DNA of 64,000 bases. Origin: Gammaproteobacteria bacterium. GTDB lineage: Bacteria > Pseudomonadota > Gammaproteobacteria > JAURND01. The stretch is from contig JASGJS010000001.1 in the NCBI GenBank assembly GCA_047601185.1, positions 1,153,118-1,217,117 of the forward strand, read 5' to 3'. This document shows positions 7,598 to 60,835 of this stretch, one piece after another. Each line of letters starts with the position of its first letter. Position 1 is the first letter of the stretch. A program made the translations under genes and the position numbers. The notes under the pieces are model-generated. The model was not told where the DNA came from. It made no database searches and was given only the letters and a program-made list of their open reading frames with translations.

Positions 7598-7652
7598 TGT
7601 GGTGCCTTCTCCCCTCCGTGGGAGAAGGTGCCGATAGGCGGATGAGGGGGGA
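7598..7652 (+). repeat. Family-A hairpin repeat (ccttctcccc..gtgggagaagg..gataggcggatgagggg)
   Basis: One of 8 copies in the window. Its internal ATG (ggcggATGagggg) is the only in-frame start available for mutY. Confidence 0.8.
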
Positions 7653-8745
7653 CCACAGTCCGGGAGAGAAACCCATTACATTTTCCAAAAAATTATTAGC
7701 TTGGTATGACACGCAAGGCCGGCAAAACTTACCCTGGCGACAAAACATCACCCCTTACCGCGTTTGGGTTTCAGAGATCATGCTCCAGCAAACCCAAGTC
7801 AAAACAGTTATCCCTTACTTCAACCGCTTTATGCAGCACTTCCCCACGCTGCAACATCTCGCTGAGGCAGATATCGATCACGTTTTGCATCTTTGGACAG
7901 GTTTAGGCTACTACGCGCGAGCTCGCAACCTGCATCGAGCCGCCCAACTCGTTTTACAGCAGCATGCAGGGCAGTTTCCTCGTGATGTAGCGTCCTTACA
8001 AGCCCTCCCCGGCATTGGGCGTTCAACTGCAGGCGCTATCGCAGCGATCAGTTACCAGCAGCGTGCGCCTATTTTAGATGGCAATGTGAGGCGGATTTTA
8101 TCGCGATTACATCGAGTAGCGGGCAATCCGCAAGATCCCGCCACGTTAAAAGCATTATGGACTTTAGCGGAAGATTATACGCCTTCGCAAAGAACGGCCG
8201 ATTATACGCAAGCCATGATGGATTTAGGCGCCATGTTGTGTCTACGCGGCACGCCAGCCTGTGAACAATGTCCCGTGACCTCGCATTGCCAAGCCTATCA
8301 GCAGGGGCAGCAAAAACAATTTCCCCACCCCAAGCCCAGAAAAACCCAGCCTATCCGCACCACGCGCTTGTTGATTCTGCAAGATATCCAACAACAGACG
8401 ATTTTGCTCGAAAAAAGGCCCGCTAAAGGCATATGGGGAGGATTGTGGAGCTTGCCGGAGTGTGCCTGGGATATTGATTTAGCGCACTGGTGTCAACAGC
8501 ATTACCAGTATGAAGTGATGGATTCTGAAAGCTTGCCAGAATTTCGCCATACTTTTACCCATTTCCATCTCGATATTCAACCTTTTTATCTCAAAGGCAA
8601 GCCCCGTGCATCAACAAACCTGGACTCGCAGCGCCAAGTTTGGTATAAACCACAGCAAATAGCCCTTTTAGGGTTGCCAGCCCCCGTTAAACGATTACTC
8701 TATGACACGACAGATTTTTTGCAAAAAACGACAGAAAGAAGCTGA
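7642..8745 (+). CDS. mutY: A/G-specific adenine DNA glycosylase MutY
   Basis: [42 protein letters not shown], the HhH-GPD region, 4Fe-4S cysteines (C..C..C..C) and a C-terminal NUDIX-like domain. The start lies inside the family-A repeat. Confidence 0.85.
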
Positions 8746-8968
8746 GGGTTTAGAAAAGCCCCCTTTTCCAACCGCCTTAGGCCAAAGAATTTATGCCGAG
8801 ATTTCTCAAGAGGCCTGGGACATGTGGTTAAGTCATCAGACCATGTTGGTGAATGAATATCGTTTAAGCTTGATTGATCCCAAAGCCAAAGCCTTTTTAT
8901 TTCAAGAAATGGAAAAATTCTTTTTTGGAGAAGGAAGCGATAAACCGGCTGGGTTTCAAGATCGCTAA
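8702..8968 (+). CDS. yggX: Fe(II)-trafficking / oxidative-damage protection protein YggX
   Basis: [42 protein letters not shown] matches YggX. It sits after mutY in the conserved arrangement. Confidence 0.8.
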
Positions 8969-8974
8969 ACTGTT

Positions 8975-9625
8975 ATGGAGTGGGATGACCTCGCTATAAC
9001 GCCGCTGGTGGAGTTTTTAAAGCATCAGCGAATTCCTGCCAGCCAATGGCCAGTCTTGACTGCTCTCGCTCAGACCCAATTGCCCAAGCCTTATCATTTT
9101 TTATTGACTCAGCCATTGATGACCGTAGGGCTTCAGCAATTCTACCAGCGCAAACCCATGCTGCGCGCACCGCTTTATAGTGTTTACGACGAATCTAATC
9201 AACAGTATTCTAGAGCTATTGTGTTGATGATAGATTCCTGTCAACGTCGTAATGATGCCCTGGTCGCGGATCAGGCAAGTGAAGCCCAACCGATTGTGCT
9301 AGGCTTTATTACCATGAATTTAAGCGCCTTACCTGTCAAGATGGTCTCTGACGTATTAGAAGCTAAAACCCCATTAGGCGCACTATTAGCGGATAGCGCT
9401 CTTAATCTACATTCACAACGACGATATTTGAATTTACGAGATCGGCAGCAGGTGTTAACGGCCTCTCTCGGTGCAACCTCCACCCGAACATTGTATGGGC
9501 GCACAAATGCCCTCTCGCTAGCCGATGGACAGTGGGTGGCGCGGGTGGTGGAAGTGCTGTCTCCGCATGTTTGCAGAAATTCCCTTGACTCTTTTGAAAA
9601 GACTTTGTTTAATAGCACACTCTAG
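8975..9625 (+). CDS. Hypothetical protein
   Basis: 216 aa ORF with normal coding composition. No recognisable motifs. Confidence 0.45.
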   Translation: MEWDDLAITPLVEFLKHQRIPASQWPVLTALAQTQLPKPYHFLLTQPLMTVGLQQFYQRKPMLRAPLYSVYDESNQQYSRAIVLMIDSCQRRNDALVADQASEAQPIVLGFITMNLSALPVKMVSDVLEAKTPLGALLADSALNLHSQRRYLNLRDRQQVLTASLGATSTRTLYGRTNALSLADGQWVARVVEVLSPHVCRNSLDSFEKTLFNSTL

Positions 9626-59285: not shown

Positions 59286-59398
59286 GGTTTCTTTTATAAC
59301 CTCCTAATCTGAACTTTAGCTTCAAACTGACTAAAAATGACTAAAGTTTGGATAATATTACGGGCTGTTGCCAGTTAGATTCCACGCAGATTTGAAAT

Positions 59399-59450
59399 GG
59401 CGAGCTGTTGCCTTCTCCCACAAGGGGGGAAGGAAACAGCTTGCCGCTCA
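59399..59450. repeat. Family-A-related long hairpin (near-perfect palindrome gagctgttgccttctccc-acaa-ggggggaaggaaacagcttgcc)
   Basis: Both arms of the family-A stem are present without the gatagggcggatgagggg tail. Confidence 0.75.
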
Positions 59451-59470
59451 AATCTTTATAGCCCTAAATA

Positions 59471-60835
59471 TCAACAACTCCTAAGTTTTTTAAATTTTAG
59501 TGTAATAAAATCATACACTCTAAACAGCGCATAAGTATAATAATAATCTACATATTTTAAAACTGATTTTTTCTTAGCAAAACATCTTAATTTTTTCAGT
59601 AAAATCGGCTCAAAATGTCTCAATCTTAAATGGTTTTTTGTAATTAATTTTTCGGTGCTTTTTAGCCAAATATTGAATTTTTCAACTGAAAAATTTAATA
59701 AATTCCCCTCATTCTGTGCAAAAGCCTCCATAAATGTTGTAAAGTGCCAATGCTCAGGCGGAATAGCTAGAATATTCATCAGCCATTGATAATATTTTTT
59801 ATGATAATTCTGTTGCATGAGATAACTGGGTCGAAATTTTCGACATACAATATTGGTCTTTGTGACTAACTCATAGAACAATATCATAAAATTCAAATAT
59901 AAATTCTTAACTTTTCTTAAATTATTATGGATGGAACCATAATCGATCAGCACAGCATCGCCTTCAGGTGCTATAATCACATTCCACAGTCTAAGATCTG
60001 TATGAAAAAGATTGTGGGTTTCGAATAATGCTAGCTGCTTTAGTAGGGAAGTTGTAATCTTATCAACACAATAAGACTCCTGCTCGATCACTTCACTTAA
60101 AGGTTTTCCCGCTAGTTTTTCTCGCATCAGCCAACCTTGCTGAGCATTTAAGGCATGACTCATGAGCGCTGGGAATTTTTGATACTGTTGCGTAAAGGTT
60201 TGTAAAAAACGCACTTCTTGGGTCAATTCTTGGGTATTAGATGGCGCGGCTGCGTGATGGCTCAGATCGTATTGTTTTAAAATAAAGCAATCAGAGAAAA
60301 AATAGCGACGACTGCCAAAGGCATTTTGCGCCAAAGGGTGAGAAATATTTGTCCAAGCCTGGAATTTTTCAAGATAACCACCAGCATACCAATAGTGATT
60401 GCTACAAAATATCATGGTATTTTTTAAATGATCTGTCACTATTTCACAATAGCTGAAATATTTTTTGCAGTATTCTAGGGAAACATCCAAAGCATTCACC
60501 AAAAATATCACCATATGTTTAGAGGCTTCTGTTAAAGCCTGCTCTAAACTGTTATTTTGTACATAAACCCTTAGATCGTGCGGAGAGGTTGCATGATCAA
60601 TAAAAGCCCAGGCCTGATTGACCGATAGCACCTGCAGAGCATCTCCAAAATATTTTTCAATTTTTTCAAAAATAGTGCTTAATTGTGGCGAGATTTTTCC
60701 TTCTCTCCCTGAGAGAGTTGTAATAGCTGCTGAGGTTTTTGATGTATGAAGACTTGATTGTGGTGAGCTGTTGCCTTCTCCCCTTGTGGGAGAAGGTGCC
60801 CGATAGGGCGGATGAGGGGTGATTTTGGTTTTCAT
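59471..60835 (-). CDS. Protein-kinase-like superfamily protein, paralogue 2 (N-terminal 17 codons read through a family-A repeat)
   Basis: FCSNHYWYAGG, FHTDLRLWNVII, IDYG. The N-terminus MKTKITPHPPYRAPSPTRGEGNS is the translated repeat element, so the true start is uncertain. Confidence 0.5.
   Translation of the reverse strand: MKTKITPHPPYRAPSPTRGEGNSSPQSSLHTSKTSAAITTLSGREGKISPQLSTIFEKIEKYFGDALQVLSVNQAWAFIDHATSPHDLRVYVQNNSLEQALTEASKHMVIFLVNALDVSLEYCKKYFSYCEIVTDHLKNTMIFCSNHYWYAGGYLEKFQAWTNISHPLAQNAFGSRRYFFSDCFILKQYDLSHHAAAPSNTQELTQEVRFLQTFTQQYQKFPALMSHALNAQQGWLMREKLAGKPLSEVIEQESYCVDKITTSLLKQLALFETHNLFHTDLRLWNVIIAPEGDAVLIDYGSIHNNLRKVKNLYLNFMILFYELVTKTNIVCRKFRPSYLMQQNYHKKYYQWLMNILAIPPEHWHFTTFMEAFAQNEGNLLNFSVEKFNIWLKSTEKLITKNHLRLRHFEPILLKKLRCFAKKKSVLKYVDYYYTYALFRVYDFITLKFKKLRSC
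60763..60820 (+). repeat. Family-A hairpin repeat copy
   Basis: gagctgttgccttctccccttgtgggagaaggtgcccgatagggcggatgaggggt. Identical to the 11013 copy. Confidence 0.85.

Follow-up and report, generated by a model that had tools for sequence, protein, structure and literature searches.

The family A repeat belongs to a class of repeats that is already known, and it is probably an untagged REP/BIME-like stem-loop repeat rather than a recently active MITE. Its 46-base core is common to very distant bacteria, almost letter for letter, with more than 30 nt identical across classes and phyla. In this genome, one old copy supplies the start codon of mutY.

In the window (the whole 64-kb stretch of DNA analyzed), the preliminary description had placed eight copies, at positions 7598, 11013, 20396, 37494(-), 45003, 55716(-), 59399, and 60763, and pattern search, nhmmer, and covariance model placed the repeat at every one of them. 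Counted in full, the window contains seven full copies, the palindromic variant c7, and a decayed remnant (Table 1), where none would be expected by chance; the density is ~1 per 8 kb. The pattern of the first hairpin, P1 (CCTTCTCCC-N5-GGGAGAAGG, with up to two mismatches), had six matches compared with 0.00 expected from 100 shuffles. The copies at 7598 and 45003 have 6-nt P1 loops and were recovered instead by a repeat-family search of the window. An nhmmer profile of the copies matched the seven full copies (E values, 4e-17 to 2e-29), the palindromic copy in both orientations, and, weakly, the remnant. A covariance model of the 46-nt core, run on the window with filters off, recovered the same seven cores (55 to 71 bits; E values, 2e-15 to 3e-20) and, at c7, P1 alone (59411 to 59433); beyond these and a weak 8.2-bit match at 60703 to 60717, it identified no further core in the window. 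The window also has another repeat family (family B), which resembles the GTGG/GGGAGC-type REPs.

Table 1. Copies of the family A repeat in the window and the two genes that they overlap
Feature	Coordinates	Strand	Description
c1	7598..7651	+	Core 7605-7648; nhmmer 58 bits, covariance model 55.3 bits
c2	10970..11071	+	Full length; core 11024-11068; covariance model 71.2 bits
c3	20364..20458	+	Core 20410-20455; P2 variant GGCCGAATAGGTC; covariance model 66.6 bits
c4	37493..37593	-	Full length; core 37496-37540; covariance model 71.2 bits
c5	44968..45063	+	Core 45016-45061; 6-nt P1 loop; covariance model 60.2 bits
c6	55715..55807	-	Core 55718-55762; covariance model 69.4 bits
c7	59359..59483	.	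Palindromic: left arm, P1, reverse-complemented left arm; both-strand nhmmer match
c8	60720..60821	+	Full length; core 60774-60818; covariance model 71.2 bits
Decayed partial copy	60678..60717	+	TGGCGAGATTTTTCCTTCTCTCCCTGAGAGAG; nhmmer E 0.003, 13.3 bits
mutY (A/G-specific adenine glycosylase)	7642..8745	+	TIGR01084, 380 bits
Kinase-like paralogue 2 (ABC1/UbiB-like)	59471..60835	-	454 aa, MFT3742225.1

A full copy is a mosaic of ~105 nt in which a lineage-specific left arm is joined to the 46-nt core. Within the core, P1 (CCTTCTCCC/GGGAGAAGG) is followed by a small hairpin, P2 (GCCC-GATA-GGGC), and then by the tail GGCGGATGAGGGG, of which 13 nt, GGCGGATGAGGG(G), are fixed and single stranded. 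The shared left arm, GCTGTTGACATTTAGATYCTATAAAGATTTGAGTGGYGAGCTGTTK, extends up to about 55 nt. The consensus and the 9-bp stem described previously hold good; this pyrimidine/purine stem, P1, is present in each copy. P2 was absent from the preliminary description, and the ~55-bp unit given there, although rightly recognized as a repeat, is too short by the extra left arm. All three antisense frames are open through the repeat, and the core, which contains ATG and GTG triplets, is free of stop codons in most frames. The cores of c2, c4, and c8 are identical over all 46 nt. Because mean pairwise identity among the window copies drops from 97% in the core to 81% in the proximal arm and 45% in the distal arm, the gradient indicates constraint or homogenization of the core and not recent copying of the 105-nt unit.

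The most diverged copy is c1, in which 37 to 40 of 44 to 45 core positions are identical to those of the other copies, the left-arm GAGCTGTT is absent, and P2 is shortened to GCC-GATA-GGC. The left arm of c2 contains a promoter-like site (TTGACA-18-GAGAAT, 10982 to 11011), and this copy ends 8 nt before the ORF at 11079. c3 begins 17 nt past the stop of a histidine-kinase gene, with an IS3-family copy ~50 nt beyond its end; c4 is in a divergent region, upstream of a cyanophycin synthetase gene; c5 is antisense to both neighbors and 15 nt from the stop of the gene at 45078 to 45809 (minus strand); and c6 lies between convergent genes, 14 nt past the RNase T-like stop and adjoining the DUF2797 stop. 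Located between kinase paralogues 1 and 2, c7 has neither P2 nor the tail, has 14 of 20 terminal bases inverted, and folds as a single long hairpin (-54 kcal/mol; z = -6.8). c8 is antisense, within the annotated 5' end of kinase paralogue 2, and the decayed partial copy directly adjoins it on the upstream side.

For mutY, the ATG inside the element had been described as the only possible start. There are in fact four in-frame candidates (TTG 7594, GTG 7597, GTG 7618, and ATG 7642), but all of them are in the element or at its left edge, and the dependence of mutY on the element for its start holds: GTG 7618 and ATG 7642 are inside c1, GTG 7597 straddles the left edge (7598), and TTG 7594 is 4 nt upstream of that edge. 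The NCBI annotation has MutY starting from ATG 7642 (367 aa; 100% match). Comparison with relatives lacking the insertion, which the preliminary description had proposed, points the same way. The two nearest relatives keep the purK...mutY-yggX order, have no element within 21 kb, and start the gene at an ATG 8 codons further in, where the window reads GAG. The best MutY match in the databases is 61% identical, and the organism of the window has no close relative there. A mutY-core association elsewhere was considered and rejected, as mutY near a core in three loci is within chance for the ~800 genes sampled.

Residues ~6 to 50 of the annotated form of kinase paralogue 2 are encoded by c8 and the remnant, in antisense, and the only alternative start is a GTG at codon 68, which aligns with Met24 of paralogue 1. 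The N terminus of this kinase had been attributed to the repeat. The annotated ORF exists (454 aa; MFT3742225.1), and by its gene call the N terminus might come from the repeat; extension of an ORF through the repeat is expected, since the repeat is open in all antisense frames. The small 69-aa ORF at 55698, for which a repeat-derived N terminus had also been claimed, is spurious: the public annotation does not include it, and it runs into the DUF2797 gene at that gene's 3' end.

A scan for P1 followed by TGCC matched at least 117 genome stretches. Among the matches listed, the core was present in Rhizobiales, Caulobacterales, Xanthomonadales, Legionellales, and Planctomycetota, including isolates of Rhizobium, Shinella, Devosia, Brevundimonas, Xanthomonas, Lysobacter, Stenotrophomonas, Legionella, and Planctomycetota. 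The tail GGA[T/A]GAGG, which lies outside the search pattern, came next in 109 of 129 instances among the matches listed. Within these searches, the core was commonest in Rhizobiales (143 rhizobial replicon records), and a 4.6-Mb Shinella record had 27 core matches. E. coli genomes gave no core match, and in the search of cultured phage genomes, matches were found only in five uncultured contigs. Phage was set aside as the transfer vehicle, as at least 120 IMG/VR matches resemble prophage or gene-transfer-agent regions with host DNA.

In P2, 71 cells were changed on both sides compared with 27.9 in shuffles, none of 500 shuffles was as high, and slid controls were far lower. Taken jointly, P1 and P2 were 98.5% paired, and two-sided changes were seen at five pairs and in 53 cells (10 in shuffles); the P1 variants CCCTCTCCC/GGGAGAGGG and CCTTCCCCC/GGGGGAAGG co-occur in the same genomes. 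The P2 stem is variable (3 to 8 bp), with 131 distinct P2 sequences of 9 to 42 nt. Among 249 cases, the loop is C(GNA)G in 122; four-base loops do not follow the GNRA pattern, and many P1 loops are CUUG-like. A DNA-hairpin reading of GNA loops would be in line with published thermodynamics. P2 mismatches, tallied as a test of strand and of RNA versus DNA, were G-T in 14 cases and A-C in 6, a split that decides neither question.

The units in other taxa (n = 113) comprise 88 single cores and 25 inverted pairs, in which two facing cores span 120 to 190 nt with lineage-specific, variable spacers; a tandem array in locus L151 has seven cores within 700 nt. According to rough custom ORF calling, the spacers that contain cores in these taxa are convergent in 21 cases, tandem in 37, and divergent in 9, a modest depletion of divergent regions (~9 observed versus 18 expected by spacer length). 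The core is sense to transcription in 15 cases and antisense in 14; the upstream stop is a median of 41 nt away and the downstream start a median of 100 nt. The suggestion that the element reshapes 5' ends of genes is correct in that the repeat sits at gene ends, but there is no general 5' bias and the repeat is closer to upstream stops. In Rhizobium, the spacer between ABC-transporter binding-protein and permease genes has an inverted pair in three strains and a plain GC hairpin with a T-run in two sister strains. This polymorphism replaces the whole spacer and is not a simple insertion; a clean empty site was not found.

The repeat had been called a recently active MITE/REP-like element. It is indeed a dispersed REP-like hairpin repeat, but the MITE half of the label does not fit. 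A classical MITE would have arisen by deletion from a DDE-type insertion sequence and would have spread recently through its terminal inverted repeats by the action of that element's transposase. The small size and the multicopy, intergenic nature of the repeat, the identical cores of c2, c4, and c8, the near-perfect palindrome of c7, and the inverted pairs elsewhere, which look bounded by 45-nt inverted repeats, would all suit such an origin. However, terminal inverted repeats are lacking in c1 to c6 and c8 (2 to 6 of 20 terminal bases match), and the spacers of the inverted pairs vary by lineage. No flanking target-site duplication was seen: shared flank k-mers were at most 3 to 5 nt and none adjoined the ends, the left boundary being approximate. 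The arms are down to 45% identity where the core is still 97% identical and crosses phyla, and in 2.1 Mb of carrier DNA no transposase turned up repeatedly near cores. The 64-kb window contains no parent insertion sequence with core-like ends; its sole insertion sequence type is IS3-family, with ends unrelated to the core. We regard a MITE origin as quite improbable. Somewhat less so, but still unlikely, is an immobile host cis-regulatory RNA module (terminator, attenuator, decay barrier, or small-RNA gene) selected site by site. Both hairpins covary, many P1 loops are CUUG-like, the copies lie close behind stop codons, and the pair swaps with a GC hairpin and T-run at the Rhizobium intercistronic site, as such a module might. 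Against this, the element shows no preferred orientation, TGCC follows P1 and no T-run comes after the hairpins, terminator-like sites number 0 at c2 and c4, and tandem arrays such as that in L151 exist. No Rfam family matched: only tRNAs were found in the window at the gathering score, nothing relevant at c2 at E values up to 10, and nothing at 18 carrier loci. Without copying, moreover, independent selection at hundreds of sites would not hold at least 30 bases, both unpaired and paired, the same from phylum to phylum. Also rejected were hammerhead, twister, attC, dif, and Tn3/IS5 end motifs, since the conserved bases do not fit them.

It is doubtful, too, that the cores are standard REP/REPIN substrates of a RayT (HUH Y1) transposase whose single gene lies elsewhere in the genome. 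The hairpins, the inverted pairs, and the REP-like density and position suit that explanation, as do the GTGG/GGGAGC-type appearance of family B and the documented occurrence of REP families common to distant species (PMC3733652). Yet the alignments show no GTAG or CGTC tag at either hairpin, P1 being flanked by variable bases 5' and TG 3' and P2 by GGT and GGAT. A single RayT query, which found E. coli rayT at 61% identity but could miss distant RayT groups, had no homologue in Rhizobium, Sinorhizobium, and Shinella records that carry the core, including the 4.6-Mb Shinella record, and matched neither the window nor 2.1 Mb of core-bearing DNA. ORFs near cores were clustered to look for a partner protein: no family in the first pass occurred in more than 13 of 118 loci, and the second pass yielded mostly spurious high-GC ORFs and phage-tail genes. 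We give very little credence to a translation-start cassette, in which GGGAGAAGGUG would mimic a Shine-Dalgarno sequence, P2 would shorten the distance to the tail AUG, and the element would spread by supplying starts. By eye, 7 of 8 positions of AGAAGGUG agree with the extended Shine-Dalgarno AGGAGGUG, the start used by mutY is the tail ATG, and c2 has GAGGGG 9 nt before ATG 11079 plus the promoter-like site. However, copies are not oriented to downstream genes and are nearer stops than starts, P1 would sequester the Shine-Dalgarno-like strand, and just one of the eight window copies provides a clear start.

An untagged REP/BIME-like repeat accords with what is known of such families. REP superfamilies are known from eight phyla and lie chiefly in convergent and unidirectional spacers, whereas the untagged stem-loop families have yet to be classified (PMC3733652). 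Like REP, BIME, and REPIN elements (PMC3733652, PMC3116915), family A has short GC-rich hairpins in high copy number in intergenic regions, prefers convergent and unidirectional spacers near the upstream 3' end (by rough gene calls), frequently forms head-to-head or tail-to-tail pairs with variable spacers, forms mosaics with other motifs (in the window, left arm plus core, and c7 from two arms), and is common to distant species. It differs in being untagged, in having two adjacent hairpins with a fixed 13-nt tail instead of one hairpin, in the lack of any RayT near its cores or in core-rich replicons (one query), and in the identity of its core across phyla. By description, rhizobial RIME and Brucella Bru-RS1 and Bru-RS2 (about 103 to 118 nt; PMC2267715, PMC10800456) are likewise intergenic palindromic mosaics of ~100 nt in Rhizobiales, and Bru-RS is counted among untagged REP-like families (PMC3733652); they are genus or order specific, whereas the family A core also occurs in Gammaproteobacteria and Planctomycetota. 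QMITE2 of Coxiella burnetii, from a related host order (Legionellales), is also similar by description: in its small form it is a REP-like hairpin that lacks both inverted terminal repeats and direct repeats, it lies over the ends of genes, and its stem is conserved across classes, with reported BLAST matches of 83 to 100 nt in the alphaproteobacteria Bradyrhizobium, Rhodobacter, and Rhodopseudomonas (PMC5896051). The full-length form (about 190 bp) carries inverted terminal repeats along with 7- to 9-bp direct repeats (PMC5896051); family A has neither. A literal sequence search of the literature gave unrelated primer matches only, and the family A element is not described in the literature on Legionella MITEs and REPs. 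Rickettsia palindromic elements lie within the coding regions of many genes and are translated. Family A resembles them as a hairpin repeat, open in most frames, that enters annotated proteins (the mutY start and the kinase N terminus), but it is almost always extragenic, and mutY is the sole convincing case of its use in a gene.

As an untagged REP/BIME-like repeat, family A would form its hairpins in single-stranded nucleic acid, either replication-fork DNA or a transcript, where the invariant unpaired bases would be read by a putative sequence-specific trans-acting factor that copies the core or keeps it homogeneous. We infer this maintenance mechanism, since no transposase or binding protein was found. 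For the host, a copy may usually amount to a hairpin between cistrons or at a 3' end that serves as an mRNA decay barrier or partial stop, because copies lie just behind stop codons in either orientation. Remodeling of gene ends would then be a by-product: open in most frames and with its ATG and GTG triplets, the core could be absorbed into ORF calls and only rarely become a real start, as in mutY.

Gene calls through the repeat in this genome, such as the kinase N terminus and the small ORFs, should be treated with caution, and mutY is a clear case of a repeat taking over the translation start of a housekeeping gene. The 46-nt module of family A, noncoding and multicopy, has two covarying hairpins and more than 30 fixed bases and is common to distant bacterial lineages. 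It has neither the tags nor, in the DNA searched, the transposase that explain classical REPs. More tentatively, the core could represent a third, untagged REP-like superfamily, independent of RayT and kept near-identical across at least Alphaproteobacteria, Gammaproteobacteria, and Planctomycetota by a putative conserved single-strand-specific enzyme or binding protein; RIME, Bru-RS, and the Legionellales-type element would each be a local form of a single ancient system. Should a single conserved factor read the core, its identity would explain how a large class of untagged bacterial repeats arises and persists.

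Family A is a real dispersed repeat in the window. A pattern search set against shuffles, an nhmmer profile, and a covariance model agree on the sites proposed in the preliminary description, and its consensus was borne out when each site was read. The pattern of the first hairpin, P1 (CCTTCTCCC-N5-GGGAGAAGG, with up to two mismatches), had six matches in the window versus 0.00 expected from shuffles, and two copies with 6-nt loops were recovered in repeat families D6, D9, and D10 of a repeat search of the window. The nhmmer profile built on the copies identified seven full copies in the window (E values, 4e-17 to 2e-29) and also matched the palindromic copy c7 and a decayed remnant. 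In an unfiltered search, the core covariance model recovered the same seven cores (55 to 71 bits) and no further cores in the window. Most of the window copies have a stop codon within ~40 nt. The source is a metagenome-assembled genome (locus tags QM752_; contig of 1.71 Mb) that NCBI lists as "Gammaproteobacteria bacterium," and the gene content of the window looks Legionellales-like, with Sel1 repeats, a cyanophycin synthetase, and a tandem set of three kinase paralogues of the ABC1-like type.

P1 has a 9-bp stem and a loop of the CTTGT type. On its 3' side come TG, the short P2 hairpin (GCCC-GATA-GGGC), and the tail GGATGAGGGG, and on its other side is a left arm that can reach ~55 nt (GCTGTTGACATTTAGATYCTATAAAGATTTGAGTGGYGAGCTGTTK). 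The unit is longer than the 55 nt first proposed. Among the six full copies compared, the mean pairwise identity is 97% in the 46-nt core, 81% in the 14 nt adjoining P1, and 45% in the distal arm, and the cores of c2, c4, and c8 are identical. Copy c7 differs in architecture, with P1 set between the left arm and the reverse complement of that arm, and folds as a single hairpin (-54 kcal/mol; z = -6.8). The arm of c2 holds a sigma-70-like promoter-like site (10/12 matches) directed through the core at ORF 11079, the ATG of which lies 9 nt beyond the tail GAGGGG. No terminator-like site was found in the scanned copies.

The preliminary description held that the repeat donates the mutY start, and this reading was upheld. 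The in-frame start candidates (TTG 7594, GTG 7597, GTG 7618, and ATG 7642) all fall within copy c1 or on its left border, and no canonical start could be read between ATG 7642 and the conserved 10-residue stretch of MutY. ATG 7642, the start of the NCBI MutY protein, is accordingly one of four candidates and not the sole possible start, as had been claimed. A conserved Trp, usually at position 12 in 120 homologues, is at position 20 here, within the observed range of 3 to 31. The gene order purE-purK-(x)-mutY-yggX is common to the two nearest relatives (MutY identities, 61% and 57%), neither of which has a family-A match within 21 kb. Their mutY genes start at their own ATG codons, with ATG-ACC-CCA-CGG-CAA-TTC-TCA and ATG-CAG-CCT-GCA-AAA-TTT-TCC, whereas the window reads GAG-AAA-CCC-ATT-ACA-TTT-TCC at the same site. 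The GAG in place of ATG indicates that the ancestral start is gone and that the element supplies the present one, a genuine capture. Copy c1 is the most decayed copy, which would fit an old copy that its function in mutY now constrains.

The other coding claims fared less well. The annotated 454-aa form of kinase paralogue 2 (MFT3742225.1) has a reading frame that runs through c8 and the adjoining remnant, in agreement with the proposed repeat-encoded N terminus, but this ORF call is the sole basis for it; the only alternative start is a GTG at codon 68, which aligns with Met24 of paralogue 1. The 69-aa ORF at 55698, also proposed to have a repeat-encoded N terminus, is outside the public annotation and overlaps the 3' end of a DUF2797 gene, and it is regarded as spurious on these grounds. 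The three tandem ABC1/UbiB-like kinase paralogues are strongly diverged, with repeats at both junctions, and the stop codon of paralogue 3 lies 1 nt ahead of the annotated ATG of paralogue 2. Since the paralogues flanking c7 and c8 are only 30 to 36% identical at the protein level, the repeats are not simply passengers of that old duplication.

The core extends well beyond this lineage. When one genome per species was scanned with P1 followed by TGCC, at least 117 stretches matched, in isolates of Rhizobium, Neorhizobium, Shinella, Devosia, Pelagibacterium, Brevundimonas, Xanthomonas, Lysobacter, Luteimonas, Stenotrophomonas, Rhodanobacter, Legionella, and Paludisphaera, in one Planctomycetaceae chromosome, and in metagenome-assembled genomes of Verrucomicrobiota, Acidobacteriota, and others. 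Shinella PSBB067, Planctomycetaceae SH248, and Brevundimonas staleyi are among the carriers with complete genomes. Among the matches listed, 109 of 129 instances continued downstream with a variable-length hairpin and then GGCGGATGAGGG, a continuation outside the search pattern. The core was also found in 156 records of plasmids or chromids (96 of Rhizobium, 28 of Sinorhizobium, 19 of Shinella, and single Xanthomonas and Planctomyces records), and no match was found in 5,426 E. coli genomes. Deposited phage genomes almost entirely lack it. It does occur on at least 120 IMG/VR contigs, and their gene content suggests that these are prophage or gene transfer agent regions with host DNA. In 726 kb of carrier loci, the covariance model had 327 matches at an E value of ≤0.001, roughly 190 of them full length. 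The flanks of the core are lineage specific, and among the matches listed, the left arm nearest to that of the window was in another gammaproteobacterial metagenome genome (locus L037).

The 113 units placed in other taxa comprised 88 single cores, 20 inverted pairs with the tails inward, and 5 pairs with the tails outward; the pairs span 120 to 190 nt, and their spacers are lineage specific. Arrays were observed as well; one in IMG/VR contig 2643221934_000004 (locus L151, positions 3980 to 4860) is built from a repeating composite unit and packs seven cores, in both orientations, into ~700 nt. As judged with our own rough ORF caller, convergent, tandem, and divergent spacers held 21, 37, and 9 units, respectively (~16, 32, and 18 expected by spacer length), with 15 sense and 14 antisense units in the tandem spacers and median distances of 41 nt from the closest stop upstream and 100 nt from the start downstream. 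Units called "genic" by the same caller lay mostly 10 to 80 nt from an ORF start. The repeat sequence is open in three antisense frames and at least one sense frame, and the position of these calls fits an over-extension of ORFs through stop-free sequence.

The pattern of substitutions indicates that the core structure is under selection. In 118 distinct cores, 79% of the P2 cells were paired versus 64% in shuffles, and 71 cells were changed on both sides versus 27.9 in shuffles; none of 500 shuffles was as high, and slid partners were far lower. In an alignment of 137 distinct sequences, which was fitted to the model and is thus biased toward the structure, 98.5% of the P1 and P2 cells were paired and both-side changes occurred in five pairs (53 such cells versus 10 in shuffles). 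The P1 variants CCCTCTCCC/GGGAGAGGG and CCTTCCCCC/GGGGGAAGG coexist in the same genomes. P2 is varied, with 131 distinct sequences of 9 to 42 nt in which odd lengths predominate. Of 249 P2 loops, 122 are C(GNA)G, and the four-base loops GGCA, GACA, and GATA are non-GNRA. In DNA, C(GNA)G triloops are the classic example of highly stable mini-hairpins, and they may point to a single-stranded DNA form. G-T mismatches in P2 outnumbered A-C mismatches (14 versus 6), a count that decides neither the strand nor the molecule.

On Rhizobium leguminosarum plasmids, the element lies in either orientation between the genes for a sugar ABC transporter binding protein and permease. Such a spacer is a classic site where E. 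coli REPs protect the upstream mRNA. In the orthologous spacer of Rhizobium plasmids (loci L118 to L123), three strains, among them R. leguminosarum 9B, have an inverted pair of cores, and in two sister strains, including TA1, a simple GC hairpin with a T-run behind it takes this place, which by analogy suggests that both kinds of hairpin may serve the same job there. The strains differ by replacement of the entire spacer, and the comparison is therefore uninformative on the ends of the element and on target duplication.

Several other repeats were observed in the window (see the table). Family B, GGGAGCGCGGGC(T/A)GCT(A/T)GCCCGCTGCTTTT, often has its palindrome between an A-run and a T-run and resembles either a REP of the GTGG/GGGAGC type or a terminator that acts in both directions. 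A partial RayT-like reading frame in a Legionella adelaidensis plasmid record (NZ_LR134418.1, 259270 to 259539; 47% identity over 55% of the query; no annotated feature there) may relate to family B, not to family A. The first IS3-family copy starts ~50 nt past family-A copy c3, and the two copies together may bracket a composite segment. The 160-nt inverted repeat and its relatives make up a third family of dispersed repeats with no relation to family A. The second copy of the 292-nt repeat shares a long divergent spacer with c4.

Features located in the window
Feature	Positions	Remarks
c7, palindromic family-A copy	59359-59483	nhmmer profile; matched on both strands
Decayed family-A remnant	60678-60717	nhmmer profile; adjoins c8
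Promoter-like site, c2 arm	10982-11011	TTGACA-18-GAGAAT
Kinase paralogues	57987-62258	three in tandem
Family B	3951-4046, 45969-46231, 52415-52934, 53687-53901, 62942-63067	three tandem 140-nt units at 52484-52913
IS3-family copies	20508-21700, 26339-27530	identical; 5831 nt apart; orfA, 87 aa; orfB, 244 aa
160-nt inverted repeat	49387-49546, 62295-62454	86% identical
Related 30-70-nt repeats	2099-2213, 49351-49379, 62428-62496	
292-nt direct repeat	32529-32820, 36882-37173	87% identical; 4.35 kb apart

Two labels had been offered for family A, a recently active MITE and a REP-like element. Comparison of the ends of the seven standard copies revealed no terminal inverted repeats, and no direct repeats flank them; the MITE label was rejected on these grounds. 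The REP-like label holds, as family A matches the general picture of REPs. Di Nocera and colleagues grouped the REPs of >80 species in eight phyla into GTAG- and CGTC-tagged superfamilies, which occur in pairs, prefer convergent or unidirectional spacers, and have RayT or TIRYT partners, and left untagged stem-loop families (Brucella, Bordetella, Deinococcus, and others) unclassified (PMC3733652). Unlike the tagged REPs, family A has neither tag in our alignments. Searches with a RayT-type query, which picks up E. coli rayT at 61% identity, found no RayT homologue in the window, in 2.1 Mb of core-bearing DNA, or in any of the rhizobial records searched; these records carry the core, and one of them, from Shinella and 4.6 Mb long, has 27 core matches. 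No Rfam family matched family A in the window, in c2, or in 18 carrier loci. Family A may have been named before, with RIME as one candidate. Another is Bru-RS, a 118-nt repeat present in 222 copies in B. melitensis (PMC2267715), and a third is the small QMITE2 form of Coxiella, for which alphaproteobacterial matches are reported (PMC5896051). Family A belongs to an already known class of repeats, as a further member. The searches yielded no partner for it, and its interest lies in a 46-nt core of two covarying hairpins that is conserved across phyla.
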